This document shows, piece after piece, positions 15,834 to 63,440 of a stretch of 64,000 bases of DNA. How positions within the stretch are numbered: the stretch's first letter is position 1; every line of letters begins with the position of its first letter. This DNA is from an uncultured Bacilli bacterium. GTDB lineage: Bacteria; Bacillota_I; Bacilli_A; RF39; UBA660. A program made the translations under genes and the position numbers. The stretch covers positions 23,037 through 87,036 of the forward strand of contig CANRCE010000001.1 in the NCBI GenBank assembly GCA_947629035.1, written 5' to 3'. The notes beneath the pieces are model-generated. The model did no database searches. It worked only from the letters and a program-made list of their open reading frames with translations, and was not told the DNA's origin.

Positions 15834-15871
15834 TTTCATTTTTTTATTTAAAGTAAATATATAAATATAAA

Positions 15872-16834
15872 TTATTCAATCTCTTTGTTTAGTATATCAA
15901 CTAAATGTTTAGAAATATATTCTAAAATTGGTATAATAACACTATTACCAATTTGTTTATAGGCTTGAGCTCCAGTACCAATTTTATAATTATCAGGGTA
16001 TCCCATTAGCTTTAAGCATTCCTTTTCAGTTAGTTTTCTATTTAATTCTACTACTACTGGAACATTATTTCCTCCAGTACCCATTTTGGCAGTTAAACAG
16101 GGTGAAATACCATTTGATCTAAATTGACATCTTGAAGGTCTTATTTCATATGCTAAAGTATATTTAGAACTTTTTTCTTTTACTTTATTAATATGAGCTT
16201 GAATATTCTTTTTACATGTATCACTTATGATATAATCATCATAAGTATTTTTAGTATCTATAATATCATCATAAGTATATAATAATAATTTTTTTGGTGG
16301 AAAAATTTCATTTATATTTAGATTTATATTTAAATCTTTTCTAATTCCTACGCAATACCATCTTTCTCTACTTTGTGGTATTCCATAATCACTAGCATTT
16401 AAAACTTTATAAACGAAATCATATCCTAATTCATTCAACATATTTAAAATAACTTTTAAAGTTTCTCCTTTATCATGATTAGTTAATCCTTTAACATTTT
16501 CTAATATAAAAGCTTTTGGTTGTTTTTCTCTAAGTATTCTTGCAACTTCAAAAAACATTATTCCTCTTGTATCTTCAAAACCTAATCTTTTTCCAGCTAT
16601 TGAAAATGATTGACAAGGAAATCCACCACATAAGATATCAAAATCAGGAATATCTTTAGCTGCGATTTTGGTAATATCACCACTAGGATGTTGCCCAAAA
16701 TTATTTTCATAAACTTTACAAACAGCTTCATCTATGTCAGAACTAAAAACGCATTTGCATTTTTGTTTTTCTAAAGCTATTCTAAATCCACCAAGTCCAC
16801 AAAATAAATCAATGAATTTTAAATTTTTACTCAT
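15872..16834 (-). CDS. DNA (cytosine-5)-methyltransferase, second of a tandem pair
   Basis: 320 aa. Motif I FIDLFCGLGGF, motif IV GGFPCQSFSIAGKRLGFEDTRG, motif VI ENVKGL. Overlaps the upstream MTase stop by 8 nt. Confidence 0.9.
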   Translation of the reverse strand: MSKNLKFIDLFCGLGGFRIALEKQKCKCVFSSDIDEAVCKVYENNFGQHPSGDITKIAAKDIPDFDILCGGFPCQSFSIAGKRLGFEDTRGIMFFEVARILREKQPKAFILENVKGLTNHDKGETLKVILNMLNELGYDFVYKVLNASDYGIPQSRERWYCVGIRKDLNINLNINEIFPPKKLLLYTYDDIIDTKNTYDDYIISDTCKKNIQAHINKVKEKSSKYTLAYEIRPSRCQFRSNGISPCLTAKMGTGGNNVPVVVELNRKLTEKECLKLMGYPDNYKIGTGAQAYKQIGNSVIIPILEYISKHLVDILNKEIE

Positions 16835-17909
16835 CTATAAATTCCATTAATTTATTTATTATTTCAGTAATAACAGGTGGACTAACTGCATTACCAGATT
16901 GTTTATATAATTGAGTATCGCTCATTTTATTTTTTTGAATATTATCAGTAAATTTACTATCAAATCCTTGAATTCTTAATGTCTCTAATGGAGTTAATTT
17001 TCTTATATAATACTCATCTTTTTCTTTAAATATAATTTTAGGGCTATCTGATCTAGCTAAAAGTGTTGGAGATATTCCATAAATAGAATAAACTCTTCTT
17101 TGCCTATCTAAATCATTGTGAACATCTCTTGGAAGAGTAAATTCTTTTATTATTTTATTATTAGTTTTTTTAGAAAGTTCATTTTTATTTAAATTATCAA
17201 TAAATTTTCTAACTTTATCAGAATTTAAGTAATATTTTTTAGCTACATTTATTTCTAATATATTTTTTATATATGTCTTTTTATTGTGCATTTCAATTAA
17301 ATTGAAAAAATTCATTGTTTTTAATTTATTTTCATTGGCCCAATTCTTAATAGAAGTTACCATTGAATTTCTTTTATCAGGAACAAATTTTTCAACTTCA
17401 TGATTTAATATACCAACTATATATGTTCTTTCTCGACTTTGGGGAACACCAGCTTCGTTTGAATTAATTATTGTAATATCAAAAGTGTAACCGCAATCCG
17501 AAATATTCTTAAGAATAGTTTTTATTGTATTTCCATTATCATGGCTTATTAAATTTTTTACATTTTCTAAAAATAAATATTTTGGTTTTTTAGTTTTTAT
17601 AATTCTAATAACATCAAAAAATAATGTTCCTCTGATGTCTTTAAAACCTTGCTGCTTACCTGCAACAGAAAATGATTGACAAGGAAATCCACCACATAAT
17701 AAATCATGATCAGGAATATCGTTTTCGTTTATCTTTTTTATGTCTTTGTGCATATTGTTAATTGGAAAATTATAGCTAAAAGTCATTGTTGCATATTTAT
17801 CAATTTCTGATGCAAAAACAAGTTCATAATCCATTTTTGATTTTTTAAATCCTTGTTCAAAGCCACCAATTCCTGAAAACAAAGAAACAACTCTAAACTT
17901 TTTTTTCAT
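16827..17909 (-). CDS. DNA (cytosine-5)-methyltransferase, first of a tandem pair
   Basis: Motif I VVSLFSGIGGF, motif IV GGFPCQSFSVAGKQQGFKDIRG, motif VI ENVKNL. The track ORF extends to 17966, but ATG 17909 (MKKKFRVVSLF) has RBS AAAGGAG 8 nt upstream and is the likely start. Confidence 0.9.
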   Translation of the reverse strand: MKKKFRVVSLFSGIGGFEQGFKKSKMDYELVFASEIDKYATMTFSYNFPINNMHKDIKKINENDIPDHDLLCGGFPCQSFSVAGKQQGFKDIRGTLFFDVIRIIKTKKPKYLFLENVKNLISHDNGNTIKTILKNISDCGYTFDITIINSNEAGVPQSRERTYIVGILNHEVEKFVPDKRNSMVTSIKNWANENKLKTMNFFNLIEMHNKKTYIKNILEINVAKKYYLNSDKVRKFIDNLNKNELSKKTNNKIIKEFTLPRDVHNDLDRQRRVYSIYGISPTLLARSDSPKIIFKEKDEYYIRKLTPLETLRIQGFDSKFTDNIQKNKMSDTQLYKQSGNAVSPPVITEIINKLMEFIDE

Positions 17910-18136
17910 GGCTTTTCTCCTTTCTAAAAAAATATAATATCTTTTTTCTAATAAATATTTTATCATATATAATTTTAAAAATCCGCAATTTTAACAAAAA
18001 AACAAAAAAAATATCTTTATTATTATAATTATGATAAATTAAAACAAAATTAAAAGGACTGTTCCCCATTTTAATTAGGTTACAATCCTTAAATAATTAA
18101 ACTGTCCAACTTTTTGGTTTCAGTCCAAATGAAATC

Positions 18137-32080: not shown

Positions 32081-32680
32081 GTGAATTTTTTTATGAATTG
32101 TAGTAAATGTAAAAAGAAAAATATTAAAAAAGCTAATTATTGTAAATTTTGTGGTAATAAATTTAGTCAAGAAGAAAGAGAAGAAGCTTATAATAAAGGA
32201 TTTGTTGCTAAACTTAAAAAAATTAAAAAATGGTATGAATTATGTAGTTTAAAAGTAATTACAGATAATATTATATTTAAAATTATTATTCTTTTAGTTG
32301 TTATTGGTATTGGTTTTTATAATTTTTTTGCAGTTGGTAAAAGTGATAATTTAACAATTATAGATAATAATATTTACGATGTTACATATAATGAAAAATT
32401 AGATGAATATTATGTTGTAATTATAAATAATGAAAACGAAGATGCCTTAAGATTGGCTTTGGATTTATATATTCCAAGTAAAGTAGATTGTTTAAATTTA
32501 AAATATTATGATGAAAATAATAAAAATATAAGTAGTGAAGAGTTTAAAACTACTGATGAAATAATACTTACTGCTAATACGGTTTCTAATAATTATTATA
32601 TAATTAGTGATAAAAATGATAGTGAAAATAAAATAAAGGTATTTGTATATTATGATAAAAGGGTAGATGGCAATGAATAA
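32081..32680 (+). CDS. Zinc-ribbon membrane protein (N-terminal CxxC-x13-CxxC, single TM, extracytoplasmic C-domain), family member 1
   Basis: 199 aa. CSKCKKKN...CKFCGNKF, then TM IIFKIIILLVVIGIGFYNFF. Confidence 0.5.
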   Translation: MNFFMNCSKCKKKNIKKANYCKFCGNKFSQEEREEAYNKGFVAKLKKIKKWYELCSLKVITDNIIFKIIILLVVIGIGFYNFFAVGKSDNLTIIDNNIYDVTYNEKLDEYYVVIINNENEDALRLALDLYIPSKVDCLNLKYYDENNKNISSEEFKTTDEIILTANTVSNNYYIISDKNDSENKIKVFVYYDKRVDGNE

Positions 32681-33332
32681 AATTTATTGTATTTACTGTG
32701 GAAAAGAAAATAATATTAAAGATAAGAAATGTAAAAATTGTAAAAAAAATCTTAAGGCTCACGATTTTGAACTTCTTAAATTTATTGGAAAAGAGGTTAA
32801 AGATGATTCTAAAGAAAAGTTTATTGATTACATTTTTGAATTTATAAAGAATTTATTTGTAAAACATGTATATGGTATTATTTTATCTTTATCTATTGTG
32901 GTTGCTGTTGGTAGTACAGTTTTAAATTTGACTAATAATAATGAAGGATATAATGGAAAAATTACAAATGAAAAATATTCATTTAATAAAATGGATGATG
33001 AAACTATGATTTTAGGTTGCTGGCATAATAGTGGCTTTATTTATGGAGGAGAGGAAGCTAATACTTATTTTAAATTTGATAATGTACTAACTGTTGCTAC
33101 AGGTAATCGGTTTTATCATGATTATTTTTCCTTATCTTACTTTTTCTATGATGATTCTCAAAGCAAAGGTGTAAAATATCTTGGATCTGAAAATTGGGAT
33201 CAAGATGATTTTATTGGAGTTTTTAATTGGAAAGATTATGATACTTTTTATTTAGAGGCTCTTGATGATACTTATTATTTTAATAGGATTGATTGTAATG
33301 ATATGCCTAATCGGGATGAATGGTTTAGTTAA
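32667..33332 (+). CDS. Zinc-ribbon membrane protein, family member 2 (conserved N-module, variable C-domain)
   Basis: 221 aa. YCIYCGKEN...CKNCKK, TM GIILSLSIVVAVGSTVLNL. The first ~105 aa are almost identical to the next gene. Alternative start ATG 32673. Confidence 0.55.
   Translation: MAMNKIYCIYCGKENNIKDKKCKNCKKNLKAHDFELLKFIGKEVKDDSKEKFIDYIFEFIKNLFVKHVYGIILSLSIVVAVGSTVLNLTNNNEGYNGKITNEKYSFNKMDDETMILGCWHNSGFIYGGEEANTYFKFDNVLTVATGNRFYHDYFSLSYFFYDDSQSKGVKYLGSENWDQDDFIGVFNWKDYDTFYLEALDDTYYFNRIDCNDMPNRDEWFS
32679..32988 (+). repeat. Direct repeat copy A (~310 bp) spanning the 5' module of zinc-ribbon gene 2
   Basis: Near-identical to 33368-33677; only a handful of substitutions visible. Confidence 0.8.
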
Positions 33333-33361
33333 TATATAAAATTTAAGAAAAGAGGTTAGAA

Positions 33362-34024
33362 ATGAGTAAAATTTATTGTATTTATTGTGGAAAAGAAAAT
33401 AATATTAAAGATAAGAAATGTAAAAGTTGTAAAAAAAATCTTAAGGCTCACGATTTTGAACTTCTTAAATTTATTGGAAAAGAGGTTAAAGATGATTCTA
33501 AAGGAAAGTTTATTGATTACATTTTTGAATTTATAAAGACTTTATTTACAAAACATGTATATGGTGTTGTTTTATCTTTATCTGTTGTTGTTGCAGCTGG
33601 TAGTACAGTTTTAAATTTGACTAATAATAATGAAGGATATAATGAAAAAATTACAAATGAAAAATATTCATTTAATGAAGTTGAAGATAGTCTTAAATTT
33701 GTAGGATGTTGGGCTGGAACTAATGAATATGAAAAAGATACAATTTGGTATCGAAAATTTTATCTTGATGGTCGAGTTTCTTCGATAACTATAACTAATA
33801 ATAATGCTTCTGATGAAAATAATGCTTATTATAATATTGTTACAGGTTATGGTGATAATACTTATAAGCATTTACATTTTTATATGGACCCTTCTCATAA
33901 GGAAGTTGAAGTTCAAACTTTTCCCTTTACATTTGTTGATAATAATACTTTTAGATATGGTGAATTAAATTATTATGAATTTTTATATAAAAGGATAGAT
34001 TGTAAGGATTTTCCAAGTAATTAA
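33362..34024 (+). CDS. Zinc-ribbon membrane protein, family member 3 (conserved N-module, variable C-domain)
   Basis: 220 aa. The N-terminal ~105 aa are ~95% identical to member 2 at the nucleotide level (33368-33677 vs 32679-32988). The C-terminal domain is unrelated in sequence but both end in ...RIDCxDxP. Confidence 0.55.
   Translation: MSKIYCIYCGKENNIKDKKCKSCKKNLKAHDFELLKFIGKEVKDDSKGKFIDYIFEFIKTLFTKHVYGVVLSLSVVVAAGSTVLNLTNNNEGYNEKITNEKYSFNEVEDSLKFVGCWAGTNEYEKDTIWYRKFYLDGRVSSITITNNNASDENNAYYNIVTGYGDNTYKHLHFYMDPSHKEVEVQTFPFTFVDNNTFRYGELNYYEFLYKRIDCKDFPSN
33368..33677 (+). repeat. Direct repeat copy B (~310 bp) spanning the 5' module of zinc-ribbon gene 3
   Basis: Near-identical to 32679-32988. 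Confidence 0.8.
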
Positions 34025-39649: not shown

Positions 39650-39988
39650 ATGAAAAAAGAGAGAATAATTAGAAAGGGTCTTGAATTTACAGATATTATA
39701 AATAATGGTAAATATGTAAGTAATGCTTTTTATTCAATTTATTATATAAACAAAAAAGAAACTCTTAATAGATTTGGTATTTCTGTTCCTAAAAAAATCG
39801 GACATGCCGTAGTAAGAAATAAAATTAAGAGACAATTAAAAAGTATTATTAATAGCGATAAAAATAGTATACAAAACGACTTTGATTATGTTATAATAGT
39901 TAGGAAAGGTTTATTAGATTTAAATTATTTTGATCGTCAACAAAATTTTTTTAAACTAATGAAAAAAATAGGTGATGCTAATGAATAA
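39650..39988 (+). CDS. rnpA: Ribonuclease P protein component
   Basis: 112 aa. RL.....F..V...G..VSN.F; GISVPKKIGHAVVRNKIKRQLK RNR-motif region. Confidence 0.85.
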   Translation: MKKERIIRKGLEFTDIINNGKYVSNAFYSIYYINKKETLNRFGISVPKKIGHAVVRNKIKRQLKSIINSDKNSIQNDFDYVIIVRKGLLDLNYFDRQQNFFKLMKKIGDANE

Positions 39989-40880
39989 GAAAAAAATAGG
40001 TATATTAATGATTTGTTTATTGTTATTATCTGGTTGTACTAAAACTTTAAAAGATAGTGATAATAAGATTGTAAAAAATGAAATAACTGGTCAAAATTTA
40101 ACAGAAAATGTTGTATGTAGACCTACGAATGAAGAAGTTTTAAAATTGTATGAAGATAATAAAGTTGATTTATCTAAATTACCAGAATGTGAAGATTTTA
40201 CTCCAATTACTACTTATGAAAGTATTTGGACAAGTTTCTTTGTAAAACCATTAGCTTGGGTAATTATTAAAATTGGTAATTTGGTTAATAGTTATGGCTT
40301 ATCTATAATTATTACTTGCTTACTTATTAGGTTAGCTTTATTTCCTGTTACTAAAAAAACAGCAATACAATCGGAAAATATGCAAAAAGCTCAACCTGAA
40401 CTTCAAAGATTAGAAAAGAAATATGCTAATAAGACTTCTCAAGAAGATCAAACTAAAAAAGCTCAAGAAATGATGATGATTTATCAAAAGTATCATATTA
40501 ATCCTATTTCTGGTTGTTTACTAGCTTTTGTACAAATTCCTTTATTATTTGCTTTTTTAGAAGCAATCAATAGAACACCTGCGATATTTGAAAATAAGTT
40601 CTTATCTCTTCATATGGGAACAACAATAACAGTTGGTATTTCAAATGGTAACTGGTGGTATTTACTTTTATTAGTTTTGATAATGGCTACGACTTATATT
40701 TCGTTTAGAAAGACTTTAAAAGATCAATCAGCTGCTGCTCAACAGATGAAATTTACAATTTATTTTATGCTTGTAATTATTTTAATTGCTTCATTTAGTT
40801 TACCTGTTGCTTTAGGTATTTATTGGATAACATCTAGTTTGTTTACAATATTACAAAATTTATGGGTTGAAAGAAGGTAA
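39981..40880 (+). CDS. yidC: YidC/Oxa1-family membrane protein insertase (lipoprotein type, SpoIIIJ/YqjG-like)
   Basis: Lipobox LLLLSGC; 60-kDa-IMP conserved core. Possible starts are GTG 39972, ATG 39975 and ATG 39981; overlaps the rnpA stop. Confidence 0.85.
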   Translation: MNKKKIGILMICLLLLSGCTKTLKDSDNKIVKNEITGQNLTENVVCRPTNEEVLKLYEDNKVDLSKLPECEDFTPITTYESIWTSFFVKPLAWVIIKIGNLVNSYGLSIIITCLLIRLALFPVTKKTAIQSENMQKAQPELQRLEKKYANKTSQEDQTKKAQEMMMIYQKYHINPISGCLLAFVQIPLLFAFLEAINRTPAIFENKFLSLHMGTTITVGISNGNWWYLLLLVLIMATTYISFRKTLKDQSAAAQQMKFTIYFMLVIILIASFSLPVALGIYWITSSLFTILQNLWVERR

Positions 40881-41493
40881 TATGATGAAGAAAAATTATT
40901 ATGAGGCTAAAAGTTTAGATGATGCTAAAAGTAAAGCTTTAGAGGAACTTAATTTAAATGAAGAAGATGTTATTATAAACATTGTCGAAGAAAAAAATTC
41001 TTTGTTAAAGAAAAATGTAAAAATTGAAGTTATAACTATTAATGATATTATTAATTATTTAAAAGAAGTTATTAATGATATTATGAAACTTATGGGTGTA
41101 GAAGTTAATCTTGAAGTAAGAAGAAGAGATAATAATATTTCTATAAAGCTTTTTTCTAATAATAATGCTATCTTAATTGGTAAAAATGGAAGAACTATAT
41201 CAGCATTACAGTTATTATTAAGACAGATGGTTAATAATCAAACCAAAAATCATGTTTCAATTGTTTTAGATGTAGAAAATTATAAAGAAAAAAAGATGAA
41301 AAATATCGAATATTTAGCTAAAAAAATTGCTAGGGAAGTTGCTAAAAGTAAAGTAGAGGTAAAATTAGATAGTATGAATTCTTATGAAAGAAGAATTGTT
41401 CATAGCATACTTTCTGATAATAAATATGTCTATACAGAGAGTGTAGGGGAAGAGCCTAATCGTTGTGTGGTAATAAAACCAAAAGAAGATTAA
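40867..41493 (+). CDS. jag: Jag/KhpB RNA-binding protein (KH + R3H domains)
   Basis: 208 aa. R3H motif (MNSYERRIVHSILSD). Follows yidC as in the conserved rnpA-yidC-jag unit. Confidence 0.8.
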   Translation: MKEGNMMKKNYYEAKSLDDAKSKALEELNLNEEDVIINIVEEKNSLLKKNVKIEVITINDIINYLKEVINDIMKLMGVEVNLEVRRRDNNISIKLFSNNNAILIGKNGRTISALQLLLRQMVNNQTKNHVSIVLDVENYKEKKMKNIEYLAKKIAREVAKSKVEVKLDSMNSYERRIVHSILSDNKYVYTESVGEEPNRCVVIKPKED

Positions 41494-41518: not shown

Positions 41519-41549
41519 CACTTAATTAATGTTATCTTTCAATTAAGTG
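41519..41549. terminator. Hairpin terminator (CACTTAATT-13nt-AATTAAGTG) between convergent jag and mreB
   Basis: Perfect 9-bp stem seen directly. The preceding A8 gives a U-tract for the - strand (mreB) transcript. Confidence 0.55.
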
Positions 41550-42521
41550 TAAATTATCTAATAATACTCCTGTTCCTTCAGCTACACAAGTAAGTGGACT
41601 TTCTGCTATGAATACAGGGACTTTTAATTCTTGAGATAATAATTCACTAAAGCCATCAATCATAGCTCCTCCTCCGGTTAGCACTATTCCTTTATCGATA
41701 ATGTCTGCTGATAGTTCTGGAGGGGTTTGTTCTAATATTCCTTTTACAGCATGAATTATGGTATAAATACTTTCTCTTAAAGCTTCTTCTACTTCATCAG
41801 AGGTTAATGTTATTGTATGGGGAAGTCCTGTAACTAAATCTCTTCCTCTTACTTCCATCTTTTCAGATTTTGAACCTGGATATACTGTTCCAATTGCTAT
41901 TTTAATTTCTTCAGCTGTTCGCTCTCCTACTAGTAATTTATATTTATCTTTTATATATTTTACAATATCATTATCAAATGTATTTCCAGCAATTCTAATG
42001 GAAGTACTGTTTACGATACCACCAAGAGATAAAATAGCTATATCTGTCGTTCCTCCTCCAATGTCTATTACCATATTACCACTTGGTTTTGATATATCCA
42101 TTCCTGCTCCAATTGAGGCTACTTTTGGTTCTTCTTCAAGAAAGACTTTTTTAGCTCCTGTTCGTTCAGCTGCTTCTTTGATGGCATTTTTTTCTACTTG
42201 GGTTATGTTTGATGGGCAACAAATTAATATTCTTGGTCTTGATAAAAAATTCTTCCCATTTACTTTTTTTATGAAATAGTTTAACATCAATTCTGTTGTT
42301 TCAAAATCGGCAATTACTCCATCTTTCATAGGTTTTATAGCTTTTACTTTTCCTGGTGTTCTTCCTAACATTTCATGAGCTTCGATACCTACGGCTAATG
42401 GTTTTTTAGTTTCACTATCAATTGCTACAACGCTTGGCTCATTTAAAACTATGCCTTGTCCTTTTATATATATTAATACATTTGCTGTTCCTAAATCTAT
42501 TCCAATATCTTTGTTAAACAT
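41532..42521 (-). CDS. mreB: Rod-shape-determining actin homolog MreB/Mbl
   Basis: 329 aa. MFNKDIGIDLGTANVLIY.KG.GIVLNEPSVVAI, DIGGGTTDIA phosphate-2 motif. Adjacent to spoIIID as mbl is in B. subtilis. Confidence 0.9.
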   Translation of the reverse strand: MFNKDIGIDLGTANVLIYIKGQGIVLNEPSVVAIDSETKKPLAVGIEAHEMLGRTPGKVKAIKPMKDGVIADFETTELMLNYFIKKVNGKNFLSRPRILICCPSNITQVEKNAIKEAAERTGAKKVFLEEEPKVASIGAGMDISKPSGNMVIDIGGGTTDIAILSLGGIVNSTSIRIAGNTFDNDIVKYIKDKYKLLVGERTAEEIKIAIGTVYPGSKSEKMEVRGRDLVTGLPHTITLTSDEVEEALRESIYTIIHAVKGILEQTPPELSADIIDKGIVLTGGGAMIDGFSELLSQELKVPVFIAESPLTCVAEGTGVLLDNLHLIER

Positions 42522-42890: not shown

Positions 42891-42905
42891 AGGCAAACTA
42901 TGCCT
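42891..42905 (-). terminator. Short terminator hairpin (AGGCA-aacta-TGCCT) overlapping the stop of the M23 gene, with an A-run upstream
   Basis: Inverted repeat seen. It would isolate the spoIIID promoter region. Confidence 0.35.
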
Positions 42906-43554
42906 GTAATTCTTCTGGGGTTTTATTATAACAATTTTCAGGATTTAATATTTTGCCTTGATAATATATTTCAAAATGAAGATGATTTCCTAAATCTTTA
43001 TTAATGTTTGATGTTCCACTTTGACCAATTACTTGTCCTTGAATAATTGTATCATCTACTTTAACAGATACATTTGATAGACTTTGATATACACTAATTA
43101 ATTCATTATTGTGTCTTATTTCTACGATTGTTCCCAAAATATCATCTTCTTTTACATCAATTACTGTTCCATCTAGGATACTAACTACATCAAAATTATC
43201 TTGATAAGCATAGTCTATTCCTGAATTTTGCATATAAGTATTTTCATAATAGATAATTGATTTTTCTTGTTCAGATGCATCTTTTTCATAATCATAGAAA
43301 TTTTTAGCTATATATACTTCATTATTTTGATATGGTCTTATAATGGTTACTGTTGTATTTATTACTGGTAAGTAATCATTTTTTTCAACAATTTCACTAT
43401 CTACATATTCTAGGTTTTCTTCTTTCTTAAAAAGTGAAGTGTTGCTTACTAATCTTTCTATAAAATACATACCTATTACGAATACAATAACACTTACTGC
43501 ATACATCATTGGAACTACAAATGGTTTTAATTTTCTTTTTGTCATTTTTTTCAC
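42898..43554 (-). CDS. Membrane-anchored M23/LytM-domain protein, SpoIIQ-like
   Basis: 218 aa. N-terminal TM; C-terminal LytM motifs (HLHFEIYYQGKILNP). Located between spoIID and spoIIID, exactly as spoIIQ (CD0125) is in Clostridioides difficile. Confidence 0.55.
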   Translation of the reverse strand: MKKMTKRKLKPFVVPMMYAVSVIVFVIGMYFIERLVSNTSLFKKEENLEYVDSEIVEKNDYLPVINTTVTIIRPYQNNEVYIAKNFYDYEKDASEQEKSIIYYENTYMQNSGIDYAYQDNFDVVSILDGTVIDVKEDDILGTIVEIRHNNELISVYQSLSNVSVKVDDTIIQGQVIGQSGTSNINKDLGNHLHFEIYYQGKILNPENCYNKTPEELQA

Positions 43555-43594: not shown

Positions 43595-44521
43595 TTAATT
43601 TTTTATTTTTTTTATGGTTGTTCCTGTATAATAATGTTTTAATATTTCATCATAGGTATAACCAGCTTTAGCCATTCCTAAAGCTCCATATTGACTCATT
43701 CCAACACCATGGCCATAACCTTTTGTTTCAATTATAACATTCGAACCTGATTGTATCATTTTAAAATCTGTTGATTTTAATCCTAACTTATTATATACAT
43801 CTGTTCCTTCGAAAAGTTGATCATTTATTTTTAAACTTAATATTCGGTTAGTGTTACTTCTTTTTACTATTTGTACTTTTAAAGTATCTTGATATTTTAA
43901 ATTTAATTTTTGATAAAAATCTTTTAGGGATATAGTTGTTTTTTGGTTAAATGCTTCAGATGTTTCTTCATCCCAAAAGGATTCTACACTTTTTAAATAT
44001 GGTAAGTCTAGATTAAAAACTAATTCAACATTTTCAGTATAGCCATTACTAGTTGAAAAAAACAAGGCATCAATTACTTCATCATTATAGACTAAATATT
44101 CATCAATTGTTTCATTTACAGCTTTTCTTAATTTATTTATATTTTTTACATAATTACTCTGCCATGCTTCTTTTAAATAATCATTATCTAAATATACTTG
44201 ATTCATTACACTATCTACGACATCATAGTCATTATCTTTATTATATTCAATTCTTTTTAAAACATAACTTCTAGCTGCTACTGCTTGAGCTTTTAGTGCT
44301 TCGATTTCAAAATAAACTGGCATTTCTCCTGCTAAAACACCTACAATATATTCTTCTAATGGTATTGTTTCTATTGTGTTTTTATCTAATCTTTTTACTC
44401 TTACGTTTAAATTATTAACATATTTTAATTGAATTTCTTTTGTTTGTACTGTTTTGACAAAGGTTACAATAAAAAAAGGTACTAAAACTATTGTAAAGGT
44501 TAATATTATTATTTTTTTCAT
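43595..44521 (-). CDS. spoIID: Stage II sporulation protein D (SpoIID/LytB family)
   Basis: 308 aa. EEYIVGVLAGEMPVYFEIEALKAQAVAARSY, FFSTSNGYTE, GYGHGVGMSQYGALGMAKAGYTYDEILKHYYTGT, the full SpoIID signature set. Confidence 0.85.
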   Translation of the reverse strand: MKKIIILTFTIVLVPFFIVTFVKTVQTKEIQLKYVNNLNVRVKRLDKNTIETIPLEEYIVGVLAGEMPVYFEIEALKAQAVAARSYVLKRIEYNKDNDYDVVDSVMNQVYLDNDYLKEAWQSNYVKNINKLRKAVNETIDEYLVYNDEVIDALFFSTSNGYTENVELVFNLDLPYLKSVESFWDEETSEAFNQKTTISLKDFYQKLNLKYQDTLKVQIVKRSNTNRILSLKINDQLFEGTDVYNKLGLKSTDFKMIQSGSNVIIETKGYGHGVGMSQYGALGMAKAGYTYDEILKHYYTGTTIKKIKN

Positions 44522-48260: not shown

Positions 48261-48782
48261 TTAAAATATTTTTGATAATGTTTCTTTTATCCAAGATTTA
48301 TATTCTACTTCTTCGTAATTTTCTGCTTCCATAAGACATAATGGAGGAAATAAAACACACCACCAATTATCTCCTTTAGCTTCTCCGATTGATACAACTA
48401 ATGATTCATAATAACCTTCTTCATATGTTACTCCTTTATATATTTTTTTAGGAAAATAATTTTGACCATAATTTAAAGTATAATTTTTATCGTAATTATT
48501 ATTTTTAAAAATATTATTAATATTTTCATCAATGGTTGATAAATTATTTTGTAAGATTAATCTTGCTTCTTGAATTGTTTTAACATCTTTTAATAATTGA
48601 TAAGTATTTTCTTCTAAATAATCTTTTACCATTCTTTTTATTACGATATCTTCTGTATTGTTGCTATTAGGAATTACTCTTAATCTAATTGAAGTTTCTG
48701 GAATTATTATGGTATCAGCTTTTGTTTCATTATATACTAAAAATATTGATAATATTGCTAATATGATAATAATTTTTTTCAA
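48261..48782 (-). CDS. spoIIR: Stage II sporulation protein R
   Basis: 173 aa. IRLRVIPNSNNTEDIVIKRMVKDYL... and C-terminal GEAKGDNWWCVLFPPLCLME, the SpoIIR signature. Confidence 0.8.
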   Translation of the reverse strand: MKKIIIILAILSIFLVYNETKADTIIIPETSIRLRVIPNSNNTEDIVIKRMVKDYLEENTYQLLKDVKTIQEARLILQNNLSTIDENINNIFKNNNYDKNYTLNYGQNYFPKKIYKGVTYEEGYYESLVVSIGEAKGDNWWCVLFPPLCLMEAENYEEVEYKSWIKETLSKIF

Positions 48783-54965: not shown

Positions 54966-56726
54966 ATGTTCAAAGAAATACTTGCAATTAGTAAAAATTT
55001 TGCTTTAGTTAAAATTGAGGGTCAGATTAATGATGATCTTTTGAATTATAATGTTGTATTTGAAGAAGATAATAAAAAAATATTAGGAGAAATTGAAGAG
55101 ATTAATGATGGACAAGCTCGTATTACGTTTTTAGGAGAATTTCATGATGGAAAATATTATGATGGTATTATTCGAAAACCTAGCTTAAATGCCAAAATTA
55201 GAATTATTAACGAAGATGAACTTAAAGAATTAGTAGGAGCTAATGATAATCGAAGTATGATTTTAGGATTATCACCATTATATAATGATTTTCCTATTCA
55301 TATAAATATTAATGAAATGTTTAGTAATCATAGTGCTATTTTTGGTAACACTGGTAGTGGTAAAACTTACGGTGTAGCACGTTTTGTTCAAAATTTATTT
55401 CATATTGATGATAAAATTCCTTTTAATAGCAATATATTTATATTCAATAATACAGATGAATATGACAATGCTTTTAATAATTTAAATACGATTAATCCTA
55501 ATTTTAATTATAAAATCTTTACTACTAATACTAATCAAACAACGATACCAATTATAAAGTTACCTCTATGGCTTTTTAGTGTTGATGATTTTGCTAATTT
55601 ATTAGATGTAACTGAATATTCTCAAATTATGGTTATTGAAAAAACATTAAGTTATGTATCTTTATTTGCAAGGAATGATGAAGAGTCTCATCGTTATAAA
55701 AATCATTTAATTGCTAAAGCAATAATTAATGTTATGTATACTAATCAAACATCTGCTAGAATTCGTGACCAAATATTTTCAATTTTAACTGATTGTCATA
55801 CACCAGAACTTAATTTAGATGTTGAAGTTCCAGGTGTTGGATATACTAGAGAATTTCGTAAATGTTTTGATATAGATAGTCAAGGAGAATTTGTTGAAAG
55901 AATACTTATAACTGGCTATATAGCTCAATTTGTGGATAATAATACTAAATGGAATGAAGATTATGTACCTTGTTATTTTACAATGGATGATTTAGAAGTT
56001 GCTATGAATTTTGCTTTAATTTCTGAAGGACTTTTGTTAAATGAAAAGACTTCTTCAGAAGCGACTGCTTTAAAAGTTAAACTTCATACATTAAATAATA
56101 GTTCTAGTCGAAAGTTTTTTGAATATGATCGATTTATTAATATAAATGAATTTATTTCTGATTTAATATTAATAAATGGTAATAAAAGAGCACAGATTAT
56201 TAATTTTGTACTAGAAGATATCGATGATAGATTTGCTAAAAATTTAGTAAAAATATATTCTAGAATACTTTTTAAATTTTCTAAATATTTACCAGATCGA
56301 GGAGCTATGCCTATTCACATTATGTTAGAAGAAGCCCACAGATATGTTCAAAAAGATAATGATCTAAATATTTTAGGATATAATATTTTTGAAAGAATAG
56401 CTAAAGAAGGTAGAAAATTTGGACTGGTATTAGATTTAATTACTCAAAGACCTACTGAATTATCAGAAACTGTTATATCTCAATGTAGTAATTTTTTGAT
56501 TTTTAAAATAAATCATCCAACTGATTTAGAATATATAAGAAAAATGGTTCCTAATATAAGTAATGATGTTATAGAAAAACAAAAATCTCTTCAATCTGGT
56601 ACATGTGTAGCTTTTGGAAAAATGATGAAAATCCCTATGATTGTTAAAATGCAGCTTCCTGATCCTGAACCTCATAGTTCAAATGCTTCAATCTACGATA
56701 AGTGGATGATTGAGTGGAAAAAATAA
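54966..56726 (+). CDS. HerA/FtsK-superfamily ATPase (DUF87 'HerA-like helicase' domain), stand-alone
   Basis: 586 aa. N-terminal HAS-barrel-like segment (ILGEIEEINDGQARITFLGEF). Walker A GNTGSGKTYGV. Walker B/DEAH-like IHIMLEEAHRYV. Conserved LITQRPTELSETVISQCSNFLIFKINHP block typical of HerA-type ATPases. No TM segments. Confidence 0.65.
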   Translation: MFKEILAISKNFALVKIEGQINDDLLNYNVVFEEDNKKILGEIEEINDGQARITFLGEFHDGKYYDGIIRKPSLNAKIRIINEDELKELVGANDNRSMILGLSPLYNDFPIHININEMFSNHSAIFGNTGSGKTYGVARFVQNLFHIDDKIPFNSNIFIFNNTDEYDNAFNNLNTINPNFNYKIFTTNTNQTTIPIIKLPLWLFSVDDFANLLDVTEYSQIMVIEKTLSYVSLFARNDEESHRYKNHLIAKAIINVMYTNQTSARIRDQIFSILTDCHTPELNLDVEVPGVGYTREFRKCFDIDSQGEFVERILITGYIAQFVDNNTKWNEDYVPCYFTMDDLEVAMNFALISEGLLLNEKTSSEATALKVKLHTLNNSSSRKFFEYDRFININEFISDLILINGNKRAQIINFVLEDIDDRFAKNLVKIYSRILFKFSKYLPDRGAMPIHIMLEEAHRYVQKDNDLNILGYNIFERIAKEGRKFGLVLDLITQRPTELSETVISQCSNFLIFKINHPTDLEYIRKMVPNISNDVIEKQKSLQSGTCVAFGKMMKIPMIVKMQLPDPEPHSSNASIYDKWMIEWKK

Positions 56727-56784
56727 AATTATAATGTAAGGTATTTCAATGCTTTACATTTTTTTTACACAAATTCAACAGTCC

Positions 56785-56895
56785 TGTGGATAAAATTTGT
56801 CAACTATGTGGATTAAAAATTTTATTATAAATTTGTGGAAAACAAAAAAAATCCTTTTAAAATAATAACTTTTATTGTTGAAAACTTGTTGATAA
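56785..56895. promoter_or_regulatory. DnaA-box cluster upstream of dnaA (oriC / dnaA promoter region)
   Basis: TGTGGATAA (56785-56793) is the perfect reverse complement of TTATCCACA. TGTGGATTA (56807-56815), TGTGGAAAA (56834-56842) and TGTTGATAA (56887-56895) each carry one mismatch. All four are in the same orientation. Confidence 0.75.
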
Positions 56896-56987
56896 ATTGT
56901 TGATATCATTGTTTAAAGAAAAAAAATGCTAGACAAATACTTTTTTTGCGTTATAATAAAGTTATGAAGTTTAGGAGGCGATAGGAA

Positions 56988-58496: not shown

Positions 58497-59609
58497 ATGA
58501 ATTTTATAATTAAAAAAGATATTCTTTTAGAAAACTTAAATAATACTTCAAAAGCAATATCATCAAAAAATTTAATTCCAATATTGTCTGGAATAAAATT
58601 TGAATTAAAAGAGGATGGTTTATATTTATATGCAAGTGATACTGATGTTACTATAAGGACTTTTATAGATAAAAGTAAAATTACTGAAATAAAAGAACTA
58701 GGTAGTATTGTTATTGGTGGAAAATATATTGTAGATATAGTAAGAAAATTACCTGATACCGATATTAAATTTGAAGTTATTGATGGTTATAAAATGTTAA
58801 TTAGTACAGATAATACAGAATTTAATTTAAATGGTATTAATCCTTCAGAATTTCCAGATTTAGATTTAGAAATGACTAAAGAACCAATTATCTTAAATAC
58901 TGAAATATTTAAAACAATTATTAATCAAACTTATTTTGCAACTTCACAAAATGAATCTAGACCTTTATTAACAGGAATTAATTTTATTATAAGTAATAAT
59001 AAGCTAGAAGTTATGGCAACAGATTCTTATCGTTTATCAAAAAAAGAAATTACTTTAGATACAAATATCGAAAATGATATAAACGTTGTAATACCAGCAA
59101 AAAATTTGGTAGAATTATCGAAAATGATGGTTGATGATGATATATTAGAAATTCATTTATTTAATAATAAAGTATTATTTAAATATAAAAATATAATATT
59201 TTTATCAAGATTATTAAGTGGTGATTATCCTGCTACTGCCAAAATAATTCCAACTGAATTTATGATAAATATTACTTGTGATTTTTCAACTTTTTTTGAT
59301 ATGATAGATAGGGCATCATTACTTACTTCAGATAAAGATAAAAATATAATAAAATTAGAATTAACAACAGAAAATTTAATAGTATCATCAAATTCACCAG
59401 AAATTGGTAAAGTAGAAGAGAAAATAAAAATGCCTAGTGAGAAATCTATAAAAATATCTTTTAGTTCTAAATATATGTTAGAAGCTATAAAAAGCTTTAA
59501 TCAAGATACTATTACGATATGTATGAATGATGATAGTAGTCCAATTGTTATAAAGTCTTCAAAAGAACAGACATTAATTCAATTGGTATTACCAATAAAA
59601 ACTTATTAA
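58497..59609 (+). CDS. dnaN: DNA polymerase III beta sliding clamp
   Basis: 370 aa. MNFIIKKDILLENLNN.SKAISSKN.IPILSGIKFEL, three-domain clamp length. Confidence 0.9.
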   Translation: MNFIIKKDILLENLNNTSKAISSKNLIPILSGIKFELKEDGLYLYASDTDVTIRTFIDKSKITEIKELGSIVIGGKYIVDIVRKLPDTDIKFEVIDGYKMLISTDNTEFNLNGINPSEFPDLDLEMTKEPIILNTEIFKTIINQTYFATSQNESRPLLTGINFIISNNKLEVMATDSYRLSKKEITLDTNIENDINVVIPAKNLVELSKMMVDDDILEIHLFNNKVLFKYKNIIFLSRLLSGDYPATAKIIPTEFMINITCDFSTFFDMIDRASLLTSDKDKNIIKLELTTENLIVSSNSPEIGKVEEKIKMPSEKSIKISFSSKYMLEAIKSFNQDTITICMNDDSSPIVIKSSKEQTLIQLVLPIKTY

Positions 59610-59704
59610 AATATAAAATAAATAATAACAATTTTAGAAAAATAAAACCTAAAATTGTTTTTTATTTTTCTAAAAATAATATTTAAAAATTATAATTTTA
59701 ATTT

Positions 59705-59745
59705 TATTCGACATTATTTGACTTATTTCGACAAAATTGTATGAT
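59705..59745 (+). promoter_or_regulatory. Putative promoter of the comK-like gene (TTGACT-16-TATGAT) with flanking direct repeats TTCGACA
   Basis: TTGACT at 59718-59723 and TATGAT at 59740-59745. TTATTCGACA (59705-59714) and TATTTCGACA (59724-59733) are direct repeats about 19 bp apart. Confidence 0.35.
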
Positions 59746-59780
59746 TTAATAAAAAGTTAAGTGAGGGGGTGAAGTAGTTT

Positions 59781-60221
59781 ATGAAAAGTAATTATACAAT
59801 TAATGAGAATACTTATCTTATTTCACAAGAAGGACGTAAGAGATCAAAAACAAAAATAATTGAAGAAGAAGCAACTTTTTTTGTTAACAAGCAGTGTTTG
59901 GAAGTAATTGATGATAGTTGTACAAATTATGGTAGTAGTTTTATAGGACAAAAAGAAAATACTAAAAAATTATTGAATATAAATATAAAACCACCTATTG
60001 TTGTTGATAAAGTTAATACCTTAATTTTTTTTCCAACAGCAAGTCCTAAATCAACAGAATGTATATGGATATCATATAATAATTTAAAATCATATAAAAA
60101 GATGAATAAGATAACTCGTTTGACATTTAAAAATAATAAAATGTTTGATATTCCAGTTACTTATGAAATAATAGATAATCAAGTTACTAGATCAATAAAA
60201 TTAGAAAAAAAATGTCAATAA
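59781..60221 (+). CDS. comK: ComK-family competence transcription factor
   Basis: 146 aa. FFVNKQCLEVIDDSCTNYGSSFIGQKENT...IKPPIVVDKVNTLIFFPTASPKSTECIWISYNNL...ITRLTFKNNKMFDIPVTYEIIDNQVTRSIKL aligns block by block with B. subtilis ComK (CVFYVNMKPLQIVDRSCRFFGSSYAGRK...HKPPIMVDPSNQIFLFPTLSSTRPQCGWISH...TEVTFSNGKTMELPISYNSFENQVYRTAWL). Confidence 0.7.
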   Translation: MKSNYTINENTYLISQEGRKRSKTKIIEEEATFFVNKQCLEVIDDSCTNYGSSFIGQKENTKKLLNINIKPPIVVDKVNTLIFFPTASPKSTECIWISYNNLKSYKKMNKITRLTFKNNKMFDIPVTYEIIDNQVTRSIKLEKKCQ

Positions 60222-60410
60222 TTTGAAAGTAAATCTTATAAGTTATTATTAAAAATTAAATAGGTTCTTAATAATAAAAATTATGATGTAAAAAAAGAAA
60301 AAATCAATTGATTTTTCTTTTTTTTAAAGTAAATTTATGATATAATTATATTGTGTATAGGGATACTGACTTTAAAAAAGGTGATAAAATGAGCTATAAA
60401 ATTAAATTAA

Positions 60411-61502
60411 ATGAAAATAGAAACATTGAAACTTAAAAATTATCGAAATTATGAAGAGTTAGATATAAAACTTCATGAAAATTTAAATATTGTAATAGGA
60501 GATAATGCTCAAGGAAAAACAAATATATTAGAGTCAATTTATGTATTAGCTATAACTAAATCATTTCTATCTATTCCTGAAAAAAAAATGATAATGTTTA
60601 ATAAGGATTTTTTTAGAATAGAAGCAAATGTAATTAGTGATGGAGTGGAAAAAAAATTAGAAATAATTACGACACCATCGACTAAAAAAGTTAAAATTAA
60701 TAATCAAGAAATAAAAAGAATAGGAGATTATATTTCACATTTAAATGTCCTTTTATTTAACCCTGATAATATAAGGATGATAAAGGAAGGTCCTCATGTA
60801 AGAAGAAAATATTTAAATGTTGAAATAAGTCAATTAAATAATAAATATATTAATATTTTAAATGAATATAATATTATTTTAAAACAAAAAAACGAATTTT
60901 TAAAAATTATTAATGTTAATATTAAAAGTAATATCGATTATTTAGATATTTTAAATAGTAGACTTGTTGAAAAGGCTGTGGATATTTATAAATATCGAAA
61001 AAAATTTATTGATAGAATAAATAATAAGATAAGTGACATATTTAAAGTTATAGCAGGTTATGGAAATTTAAAATTATTATATATAAGTCAGGTAGATGAT
61101 GTAAATTCACAAGCTAATTTATTAGAAAAATTAAAAAAAAATTATCAAAAAGAGCTTAATTATAAAGTTAGTCTCATTGGTACACATAGAGATGATTTTC
61201 ATTTTATTTTAGATGATAAAGATATATCGTTGTATGGTTCACAAGGTCAACTTAGAGTGGCTATTCTTGCTCTTAAATTGGCAGAAGTGTCTATTTTTTA
61301 TGAAGATACTAATGAGAATCCTATATTATTATTAGATGATATATTTAGTGAATTGGATATAAATAAAAGAAATAAGTTAATTGAGTTATTAGATAATGAT
61401 GTTCAAACTATTATAACGACTACTGATTTACATTCAATTGATGAAAGATTAACAAAAAATGCTAAAATATTTAAGATATCTCAAGGTAAATTAGTGGATT
61501 AG
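60411..61502 (+). CDS. recF: DNA replication and repair protein RecF
   Basis: 363 aa. Walker A IVIGDNAQGKTNILESI, ABC signature/Walker B region LLLDDIFSELD. Confidence 0.9.
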   Translation: MKIETLKLKNYRNYEELDIKLHENLNIVIGDNAQGKTNILESIYVLAITKSFLSIPEKKMIMFNKDFFRIEANVISDGVEKKLEIITTPSTKKVKINNQEIKRIGDYISHLNVLLFNPDNIRMIKEGPHVRRKYLNVEISQLNNKYINILNEYNIILKQKNEFLKIINVNIKSNIDYLDILNSRLVEKAVDIYKYRKKFIDRINNKISDIFKVIAGYGNLKLLYISQVDDVNSQANLLEKLKKNYQKELNYKVSLIGTHRDDFHFILDDKDISLYGSQGQLRVAILALKLAEVSIFYEDTNENPILLLDDIFSELDINKRNKLIELLDNDVQTIITTTDLHSIDERLTKNAKIFKISQGKLVD

Positions 61503-61508
61503 GAGGGA

Positions 61509-63440
61509 ATGATGAAAATGGACAAGACAATGAATGAACATTATGATGCTTCGGATATTCAAGTATTGGAAGGATTAGAAGCAGTAAGAAAAAGACCAGG
61601 TATGTATATAGGCTCTACTAGTTCAAGAGGGCTTCATCACCTTGTTTGGGAAATAGTAGATAATGCTATTGATGAGGCTTTAGCTGGTTATTGTGATGAT
61701 ATAGAAATTATAGTTAATAAAGATGGTTCTGTTACTGTTAAAGATGATGGAAGAGGTATTCCTGTTGGAATTCATAATAAAACTGGAATTTCTACGGTTG
61801 AAACGGTTTATACGGTGCTACATGCTGGTGGAAAGTTTGGTGGAGGAGGATACAAAGTCTCTGGTGGTTTACATGGTGTTGGAGCCTCTGTTGTAAATGC
61901 TTTAAGTAAAAGAGTTGAGGTTACTGTTTATAAAGATGGAAAAATATATAATGCTAAATTTGCCAATGGTGGAAAAACAGTTCAACCACTAACAATAATT
62001 GGTGAATGTAGTATTGAACGTACTGGAACAACTGTTACTTTCTTACCTGATGATGAAATATTTAAAGAAACAACTACTTTTGATTATGAAATATTGAAAG
62101 CAAGATCAAGAGAATTAGCTTTTTTAAATAAAGGACTTAGGATTATATTGGTCGATGATCGTACTGGTGCTAAAGATACTTTTGTTTATGAAGGTGGAAT
62201 TATTGAATATGTTAGATTATTAAATCAAAATAAGACACCTATATTTGATGATATTATTTATGTGGAAGGAACGGAAGATGATGTTTCTATTGAAGTTGCT
62301 TTGCAATATAACGATGGATATAATAGTTCTATTTATTCGTTCGTTAATAATATAACAACTCCAGAAGGTGGAACTCATGAAGATGGGGTTAAAAATAGTC
62401 TTACACGAATTATAAATAATTATGCCAAAAATAGTAAAATGATGAAAGATAATGATGAGTCTTTAACTGGTGATGATGTACGTGAGGGTATTGTTATGAT
62501 TATTTCTGCAAAAGTACCTGAACCACAATTTGAAGGTCAAACGAAGACAAAACTTGGAAATAGTGAAGTTAGAAAAATTGCAGGTAATTTATTTGCTACA
62601 GAATTAGAAAGATATTTATTGGAACATCCTGATGAAGCTAAATTAATTGTTGAAAAAGCAATGACAGCTGCTAGAGCTAGAGTTGCAGCCAAAAAAGCTC
62701 GTGAATTAACAAGACGTAAAGGTGGATTAGAATTAACACAACAATGGGGAAAACTTACTGATTGTTCTTCAAAAGATGCTACTATATCAGAAATGTTTAT
62801 AGTTGAGGGTGATAGTGCTGCTGGTTCAGCTAAAACTGGTCGTGATCCTAAAACTCAAGCTATATTACCTATTCGTGGAAAAATATTAAATGTGGAAAAG
62901 GCAAGGTTAGATCGTATATTTGCTAATGAAGAAATTAGAACGATTATTACAGCACTTGGTACTGGTATAGGTGATGAATTTGACATTTCTAAATTGAGAT
63001 ATTATAAAATTATTATTATGACGGATGCTGATGTTGATGGAGCTCATATAAGAACATTATTATTAACATTATTTTACCGTTATTTTAAACCATTAATTGA
63101 AAACGGTCATATTTTTGCTGCTCAACCACCATTATATTCAATAAAGCATGGAAAAACTATAAAATATGTGTTAGATGATGAGGAAAGAGATGCTTATCTT
63201 GCTACATTACCTAGTAATACAAAATATGAAATTGGTCGTATGAAAGGTCTTGGTGAAATGGATCCTCATGAATTAAGGGAGACTACAATGAATATAGATA
63301 CGCGTGTTTTGAAGCAAATTGATTTGGAAGATGCTATGGCAGCAGATGAAGTATTTCCACTGTTAATGGGTGAAGAAGTAGAGCCAAGAAGAAAATTTAT
63401 CGAAGATAATGCTTTAAATGTTGTAAATCTTGATATATAG
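61509..63440 (+). CDS. gyrB: DNA gyrase subunit B
   Basis: 643 aa. GHKL ATPase motifs ([29 protein letters not shown]), Toprim EGDSAGGSAK, [12 protein letters not shown]. Confidence 0.97.

Follow-up and report, generated by a model that had tools for sequence, protein, structure and literature searches.

What is a homologue of ComK, the competence master regulator of Bacillus subtilis, doing between two replication genes at the chromosomal origin of an uncultured Bacilli bacterium, and what controls it there? The question is raised by a stretch of 64,000 nucleotides (nt) of contig CANRCE010000001.1 (assembly GCA_947629035.1, positions 23,037 to 87,036 of the forward strand; GTDB lineage Bacillota_I, Bacilli_A, RF39, UBA660), referred to here as the window, in which an open reading frame (ORF) of 146 amino acids (aa) lies between dnaN and recF. 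A first-pass annotation, made from the sequence alone, had assigned this ORF to the ComK family, noted a promoter and direct TTCGACA repeats in front of it, and asked whether the lineage is naturally competent or has co-opted ComK for another regulon. Here we find that the ORF is an intact, selectively maintained short-form ComK comprising the Pfam core only, and that, throughout a broad clade of gut-associated, uncultured Bacilli with a GC content of ~25%, it holds a fixed place in the dnaA-dnaN-[comK]-recF-gyrB cluster near the origin. Judging from the make-up of its promoter, we consider it probable that the gene is transcribed under the direct control of phosphorylated Spo0A (Spo0A~P), with activation as the favoured outcome.

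The assignment to the ComK family was borne out by the Pfam profile (PF06338), which the ORF matches with 127.5 bits (E = 4.6e-37; cutoff 22.3) and almost over its full length, residues 3-144 of the protein aligning with positions 2-146 of the 152 in the model. No NCBIfam model matched the ORF at E <= 10, and no source in a look-up of protein collections names this protein; the exact GyrB and SpoIIR sequences of the window are absent from that collection. Compared by BLASTP with P0266, a ComK of canonical length (192 aa), residues 1-144 showed 34% identity and 56% positives (E = 2e-27), the blocks common to both proteins being IDxSCxxYGSSxxGxK, KPPIxVD, FPTxS, CxWIS and NQVxR. The C-terminus of the window protein corresponds to residue ~153 of P0266, and the tail of ~40 aa that follows in the longer protein is missing. 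The whole short ComK clade has lengths of 145-157 aa. An exhaustive search of 1.84 billion cluster representatives with a ComK-family profile gave 1713 matches, in which the 145-157-aa forms dominate the top scores and the Bacillus-type forms of ~190 aa first appear at about 1e-32; the best 150 of these 1713 representatives (clustered at 50% identity) are mostly forms of ~150 aa. All homologues are metagenomic.

The first-pass annotation had also raised the possibility of a pseudogenised remnant. Every lineage examined has an unbroken reading frame, 13 ComK sequences (relatives at 38-69% identity) share 16 invariant residues, and about one-third of the identical residues are encoded by different codons in relatives, a synonymous turnover that indicates a frame kept by selection. 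Together, these observations largely exclude a gene in decay.

A structural model suggests how the protein may act. The AlphaFold2 model of the window ComK (44 homologues; mean predicted local distance difference test score, pLDDT, 93.8; predicted template-modelling score, pTM, 0.89) has a beta-rich core, two central helices and a long C-terminal helix. Its best likeness is to LytTR DNA-binding domains, namely ComE of Streptococcus pneumoniae (4cbv), AgrA (3bs1) and 3d6w, for which Foldseek gave probabilities of 0.87-1.0, with weak E-values and template-modelling (TM) scores of about 0.4-0.5. Given that sequence identity to these LytTR proteins is just 11-13%, the likeness is one of fold only and not of family membership, and the window protein lacks a receiver domain. 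A Pfam scan at E <= 10 returned PF06338 alone, with no match to LytTR (PF04397), and a search of PDB sequences with the ComK profile found no solved structure of any relative. ComK, RemA and AgrA-LytTR were also grouped by fold in an independent 2026 preprint (PMC13232269). The model thus supports DNA binding in a LytTR-like mode by the window ComK.

In Bacillus, the slot between dnaN and recF is normally filled by yaaA/rlbA, which encodes an S4-domain protein. It is likewise a small gene at position X of a dnaA-dnaN-X-recF-gyrB order, but the two proteins belong to unrelated families, and no remnant of an S4 domain is visible in positions 59610-60410 of the window, whether in the ORFs, in the sequence or in a Pfam scan of the ORF. 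We compared this locus across 16 independent metagenomic lineages with ComK proteins 27-69% identical to that of the window. They comprise the window with its identical copies, relatives at 69%, a clade with 149-aa proteins, contigs from the Joint Genome Institute (JGI), P0005, P0006 and P0011, along with P0145, P0168 and P0194, members of other 35%-identity clusters. Scans of genome and metagenome collections with the peptide pattern WISYNNL[KEL] returned three loci, and the related loci in species-representative genomes belong to metagenome-assembled genomes (MAGs) labelled 'Bacilli bacterium' from goat colon and the Hadza gut, apart from one in a probably mis-binned MAG with the label 'Muribaculaceae'. 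In all 16 lineages, a ComK gene of ~146-157 aa comes directly after dnaN, whose product ends in L(V/I)LPI(K/R)TY, and recF is the next gene in each of the 14 lineages with a contig reaching that far. In one lineage (L026), two additional small ORFs separate dnaN from the ComK gene. The position first described as unusual is so with respect to model organisms, but within the clade it is the rule. A literature search found no paper that ties ComK to the dnaN-recF slot or, in a relevant way, to Erysipelotrichia-like taxa.

One of the contigs compared (L014, CAZRJK010000007.1) is labelled 'uncultured Muribaculaceae bacterium', a member of the Bacteroidota. It shows the Firmicute order of a HerA-like gene, dnaA, dnaN, ComK, recF and gyrB, and the contig is likely mis-binned or mislabelled.

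The region upstream of the ComK gene carries the evidence on its control. Twelve lineages have three 7-bp direct repeats there, with a period of exactly 10 bp (7 bp of box and 3 bp of spacer), and the repeated motif, TTCGACA, is the exact reverse complement (7/7) of the 0A-box core TGTCGAA. Among the 36 phased boxes of these 12 lineages, 11 are perfect and 28 lie within one mismatch of TTCGACA. The proximal box is the most conserved, reading (T/A)TCGACA in 11 of the 12 three-box promoters, and relative entropy averages 1.50 bits in the box columns versus 0.45 bits in the other upstream columns. In three lineages (L021, L023 and L027) the array is reduced to one or two boxes, L023 and L027 being single-box promoters; these boxes are shifted upstream by one turn of the helix, to 21-22 nt from the -10 hexamer. 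A box so placed, which corresponds to the middle box in the triple arrays, is the one element common to all 16 lineages. At least one box within one mismatch, in the same orientation and no more than 100 nt from the ATG, was found in 15 of 15 lineages, 13 of which have at least two boxes at multiples of 10 bp; the sixteenth lineage, L027, has a perfect box.

Box density and pair counts were obtained with the 0A consensus from the literature, independently of the motif learned here. In the 130 nt preceding the ComK genes, the density of boxes within one mismatch is 17.7 per kb, compared with 1.1 per kb in the remainder of these loci, a 16-fold enrichment. Only three other same-strand pairs with a 10-bp period were found in 334 kb of strand sequence, all of them upstream of dnaA (oriC), in three lineages. 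When the whole window was scanned with a position weight matrix for the triple array, which was built from these promoters, the array in front of the ComK gene scored 31.5, the runner-up 18.0 and the best match in 20 shuffles at most 17.3. The direct repeats pointed out as a possible regulator-binding site thus form a real array, conserved across lineages and far beyond chance, and they may be taken as predicted binding sites.

The core promoter was defined by aligning the lineages on the sole invariant downstream element. In 11 of the 12 aligned lineages, TGn is followed by an A/T-rich, -10-like hexamer, mostly TTTAAT, at a constant distance from box 3; the exception, L024, has TATAAT 1 nt closer to box 3 and without the TGn register. 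The distance from the end of box 3 to the TG is 8 nt, or 9 nt in L011 and in L024 (no TGn register). Counted upstream from the -10 hexamer, the boxes start at ~18, 28 and 38 nt, leaving gaps of ~11, 21 and 31 nt, and with TGnTTTAAT as the -10 element they would be located at roughly -51/-45, -41/-35 and -31/-25. No TTGACA-like hexamer is present 16-18 nt upstream of the conserved extended -10. The promoter proposed initially, TTGACT-16-TATGAT at 59718-59745, is the best sigma-70-like match of the region, but such matches are not enriched there (11 versus 12.8 +/- 3.8 in shuffles), so that this call, taken alone, is at chance level. Its TATGAT overlaps the extended -10, lies 5 nt upstream of it and is weakly conserved in relatives (e.g. 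TGTGCT). It is probably not the functional geometry, and the conserved -10 leaves the -35-like box ~21 nt away. The gene does have transcription signals of its own, as was claimed for it, although the element that is conserved is the extended -10 located 5 nt downstream and not the geometry first put forward.

The ComK gene appears to be a monocistronic transcription unit, considering that a hairpin with a T-run closes dnaN, that the gene has an extended -10 of its own and that a separate, conserved promoter serves recF. The hairpin and T-run after the dnaN stop codon are found in the same place in every relative; a consensus terminator scan of the region, which needs at least three G-C pairs, reported none. 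A second terminator-like hairpin follows the ComK gene in the window but has no obvious equivalent in the 149-aa sub-clade, in which read-through into recF is therefore possible. The recF extended -10, TTTATG(A/G)TATAAT (TTTATGRTATAAT), is kept in all relatives. Translation signals are conserved too, with a G-rich Shine-Dalgarno run in 13 lineages (GGGGG in nearly all of them, GGATGTGGG in L024) and none in L021 and L027.

Two further elements were observed in the leaders of this region. Just 3' of the recF -10, at 60355-60366 of the window, is the sequence GTATAGGGATAC (variants GTAGAGGTGTAC, GTAGTGGTGTAC and GGTATAGGAGTAC), which is present in L007, L023, L024 and L027 and missing from the 149-aa clade; a role as a small leader hairpin or as an operator is possible. 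The other is a palindrome between the -10 and the Shine-Dalgarno sequence of the ComK gene in one sub-clade (CTGTCACG-N8-CGTGACAG at 60-90 of L017, TGTCACGGATTAATGTGA at 4900-4935 of L014). It is absent in the window and could be an extra operator or an RNA hairpin.

The match between the repeats and the 0A box extends beyond the consensus. Spo0A contacts the G and C positions of the TGTCGAA core base-specifically, and the protein of Clostridioides difficile has the same specificity as that of B. subtilis (PMC3485338). The best-conserved columns of the repeats, C3, G4 and C6 of TTCGACA, are the complements of the contacted positions. The spacing agrees as well: Spo0A footprints pairs of 0A boxes with a 3-bp gap, it binds boxes at the origin of replication of B. 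subtilis, and the sigma-A promoters it controls (abrB, phage phi29/Nf A2c and spoIIG) have the same 7-bp core, arranged head to tail with a 3-bp spacer (PMC2731898). The window array differs from those promoters in that three phased, predicted sites run into the promoter spacer.

If Spo0A does bind these boxes, activation is somewhat better favoured than repression. The promoter has no usable -35, the distance and helical phase of the boxes to the -10 are rigidly conserved, and the reduced promoters keep precisely the -41/-35 box, with a -35-like TTGAC(T/A) inside it ~21 nt from the -10. This agrees with the Spo0A-activated type of sigma-A promoter represented by spoIIG, in which 22 bp separate the -35-like element from the -10 and 0A boxes lie over the former. 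We propose that Spo0A~P would bind one to three head-to-tail 0A boxes with 3-bp spacers at the ComK promoter and turn on transcription from an extended -10 lacking a proper -35. The short ComK, which from its family membership and predicted fold would bind DNA through a LytTR-like beta fold, might then switch on its regulon as cells enter the Spo0A-ON state, genes for DNA uptake and recombination being the most plausible targets. The known ComK site, AAAA-N5-TTTT, is a pattern ubiquitous at 25% GC and has no statistical power there, so that no K-boxes can be called at these promoters.

Several points weigh against Spo0A-dependent activation, and some of them provide the ground for other explanations. 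The window contains neither a spo0A gene nor any other classical Spo0A target, and it is presumed that this organism has Spo0A and that other parts of its genome use the motif. None of the 60 window ORFs of 100 aa or more was recognized as a late competence gene; the window is part of a genome probably larger than 1 Mb. The position of the ComK transcription start is a deduced one, and if TATGAT were the -10, box 2 would occupy the normal -35 position (16-nt spacer) and box 3 would fall within the spacer, as in an operator. Such an arrangement would fit a gene that Spo0A~P shuts off at the commitment to sporulation, with the extended -10 constitutive or otherwise activated, a scenario we regard as possible but on the whole rather doubtful. 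Between the -35 position and the -10, a bound protein usually occludes RNA polymerase, and this is where the proximal box is found; an extended -10 is also able to work without a -35. Precedents exist in the R1 box of B. subtilis PcomK, which overlaps the -35 and represses (PMC3297582), and in the A2c promoter of phage Nf, which is repressed by Spo0A and has tandem 0A boxes 3 bp apart within the Spo0A footprint (PMC2731898). Repression, however, has no need of rigid spacing and helical phasing, and L021, L023 and L027, which lack the proximal, occluding box, keep the one 21-22 nt from the -10, at a distance typical of a class II activator.

The identity of the bound protein is a separate matter. 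LytTR domains, which the predicted ComK fold resembles, typically bind direct repeats, which makes the short ComK itself a candidate, and B. subtilis ComK activates its own promoter (PMC3297582). Nevertheless, autoregulation, or binding by another regulator, with the 0A match a coincidence, seems unlikely to us. The motif is constant although the ComK proteins diverge to 27% identity, a pattern that better fits an ultra-conserved factor such as Spo0A; the known site of ComK, an A/T-tract motif, differs from TTCGACA; both the 7/7 core and the 3-bp spacing match the published Spo0A site; and three of the four other tandem pairs are located upstream of dnaA, in the origin region, where Spo0A of B. 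subtilis binds too. That same region could instead hint at DnaA, acting on a cluster of DnaA boxes either as a regulator of transcription or within an extended origin: the gene resides in the dnaA-dnaN cluster, the second- and third-best matches to the triple array in the window are upstream of dnaA, and the DnaA boxes of the clade (TTATCAACA / TGTTGATAA, some of them TTATCGACA in L011) share the final ACA of the repeats. Only one of the 36 boxes, though, is within one mismatch of TTATNCACA or TTATCAACA, compared with 28 for TTCGACA, and most are 2-4 mismatches away. The TTAT prefix is not kept, the sixth position is G and not C or A, and the period is 10 bp instead of the 11 bp of the origin arrays. 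A DnaA identity of the repeats is unlikely, and control of the gene by DnaA is accordingly given very little probability. Least credible of all is the notion that the gene is a relic after all, or that the repeats are just overlapping -35-like hexamers in AT-rich DNA. It draws on the chance frequency of sigma-70-like matches and on the resemblance of TTCGACA to TTGACA, and it is opposed by the evidence for an intact, selected frame (invariant residues and synonymous turnover included), by the confident predicted fold, by the conservation of the central CG, which is foreign to TTGACA, and by the 16-fold enrichment of boxes. An OmpR/PhoB-type 'pho-box' was also considered and dropped, given that the period is 10 bp and not 11 bp and that the core is exactly that of the 0A box.

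Direct control by Spo0A~P, the reading we prefer, would place the short ComK in a simpler circuit than that of its Bacillus-type counterparts. In B. subtilis, comK is at a locus distant from the origin. Its promoter also has several Spo0A boxes, which tie ComK to the output of the phosphorelay (Mirouze et al. 2012, PMC3297582). There, Spo0A~P acting on five degenerate boxes activates and then represses, setting a window for competence (PMC3297582). Those boxes, with one or two mismatches each, are scattered and have ComK boxes and a Rok-binding region in between, whereas in the promoters of the window clade one to three boxes close to the consensus follow one another strictly head to tail and abut the core promoter. 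The proteins differ as well. Compared with the Bacillus-type ComK of ~192 aa, that of the window is without the C-terminal tail of ~40 residues and an N-terminal extension of ~8 residues. In B. subtilis, the tail holds the FMLYPK-type peptide recognized by MecA/ClpCP; this layer of control probably does not apply to the short form, the regulation of which is probably mainly transcriptional. It is conceivable, although we hold it only tentatively, that the short ComK is not a classical competence switch but an early, origin-linked member of the Spo0A regulon, coupling the entry into sporulation or stationary phase to genes for DNA uptake, recombination or replication-related functions without the MecA/ClpCP/ComS and Rok layers. 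The coordinates of the locus are given in Table 1.

Table 1. Annotated and predicted features of the dnaA-gyrB region, in window coordinates
Feature	Position	Strand	Basis or remark
dnaA	56988-58346		Upstream of dnaN
dnaN (DNA polymerase III beta clamp)	58497-59609	+	370-aa ORF; DNA_pol3_beta domains 1-3 in the identical gene of L001
Terminator-like hairpin (AACAATTTTAG / CTAAAATTGTT) and T-run, putative end of the dnaN transcript	59627-59669	+	Sequence reading; fold of the region z = -4.7 versus shuffles
Predicted 0A box 1 (distal), TTCGACA	59707-59713	+	Exact match to the reverse complement of TGTCGAA; phased box in 12 lineages
Predicted 0A box 2 (middle), TTTGACT	59717-59723	+	Two mismatches; contains the -35-like TTGACT, ~21 nt from the conserved -10 hexamer
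Predicted 0A box 3 (proximal), TTCGACA	59727-59733	+	Exact match; 8 nt separate it from the TG of the extended -10
Extended -10 TGATTTAAT (TGnTTTAAT), putative sigma-A -10 of the ComK gene	59742-59750	+	Conservation across lineages
Shine-Dalgarno sequence GAGGGGG	59763-59769	+	G-rich purine run before the start codon
Short-form ComK-family transcription factor gene	59781-60221	+	ATG start, 146 aa, stop included; PF06338 match
Terminator-like A/T-rich hairpin and T-run 3' of the ComK gene	60294-60325	+	Fold and sequence
Putative recF promoter, extended -10 TGATATAAT	60338-60346	+	Conserved downstream of the ComK gene
recF	60411-61502	+	363-aa ORF starting MKIETLKLKNYRNYE; SMC_N / AAA domains in an identical copy
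gyrB	61509-63440		Downstream of recF

The wider window is consistent with the label of AT-rich sporeformer that the organism had been given. Its GC content is about 25%, and among its genes are those for SpoIID (equivalog TIGR02870, 324 bits, above the cutoff of 234.75), SpoIIR (128.9 bits with Pfam and 130.7 bits with TIGR02837, the latter below the strict cutoff) and a SpoIIQ-like M23 protein (165 bits, below the cutoff), the joint presence of which indicates a spore-former. It represents an origin region typical of Firmicutes, with trmE, gidA, gidB, parB, dnaA, dnaN, recF, gyrB, rnpA, yidC, jag, dnaB, rplI, ssb and ychF. A scan of the whole window with Rfam found nothing. On the minus strand, spoIIR (48261-48779) is only ~8 kb from dnaA, and spoIID (43595-44518) is adjacent to the spoIIQ-like M23 gene (42898-43551), both beside mreB/mbl (41532-42521). 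The proximity of spoIIR to the origin is a positional rule known from B. subtilis.

The origin itself shows several features of its own. Upstream of dnaA, the oriC regions contain arrays of the DnaA-box-like sequences TTATCAACA / TGTTGATAA with an 11-bp period, located at 56752-56904 in the window, where a perfect TGTGGATAA occurs at 56785-56793. Tandem pairs of the 0A type, TTCGACA-N3-TTCGACT, are found at oriC in L011 (1752-1768), L016 (1893-1909) and L026 (5457-5473), and several DnaA-type boxes of L011 read TGTCGATAA, overlapping the 0A core. This suggests a possible competition of Spo0A and DnaA for the origin, of the kind described for B. subtilis. Directly upstream of the dnaA promoter and oriC is a gene for a HerA/FtsK-like ATPase of ~585 aa (54966-56726, plus strand), which matches Pfam DUF87 and reaches the HerA models of NCBIfam only far under their cutoffs. 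This gene is kept in place across the clade (L014 70-1824, L025 5060-6820, L026 3594-5342, L016 116-1762) and lies between rpmH and dnaA in the relatives, an unusual insertion on the origin side. In these, rpmH-rnpA-yidC-jag-trmE-gidA forms one contiguous block (L025 2899-4914, L026 1362-3533) that diverges from the HerA-like gene and dnaA. In the window, rnpA-yidC-jag (39650-41493, plus strand) is ~13 kb off and on the strand opposite to trmE-gidA-gidB-parB, a displacement which indicates that this lineage has undergone a local rearrangement close to the origin.

Two other parts of the window stand out. At 14258-17966, two adjacent genes for C-5 cytosine DNA methyltransferases (15872-16834 and 16827-17966, minus strand) converge on two ORFs without a Pfam match (14258-15013 and 14985-15833, plus strand); together, they are probably a restriction-modification module. 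At 32081-34024 (plus strand), three consecutive ORFs of ~200-220 aa have no family match, save for a weak TcaA-like N-terminus in the first. The block has a strongly positive GC skew (+0.44), opposite to its surroundings, and could be a small element that was inserted here.

Nearly all work on ComK has concerned Bacillus, Staphylococcus and Listeria, where the protein has ~190 aa, is encoded away from the origin and is embedded in elaborate, species-specific circuits. The locus analysed here reveals that the family has a large short-form branch, hitherto unstudied, with a fixed address in the dnaA-dnaN-recF-gyrB cluster, and with a simple, conserved promoter that, in sequence, reads like a textbook Spo0A target. 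If the proposed control by Spo0A is true, the tandem-box promoter would, whatever the function of this ComK, be a compact candidate for a Spo0A-responsive element in synthetic use. The clade would then offer a minimal, testable form of the link between Spo0A and ComK, a link that Rok, CodY, AbrB, DegU and MecA overlay in B. subtilis. Such control would also suggest that uncultured, spore-forming gut Bacilli may couple DNA uptake, or another programme driven by ComK, to the entry into sporulation.

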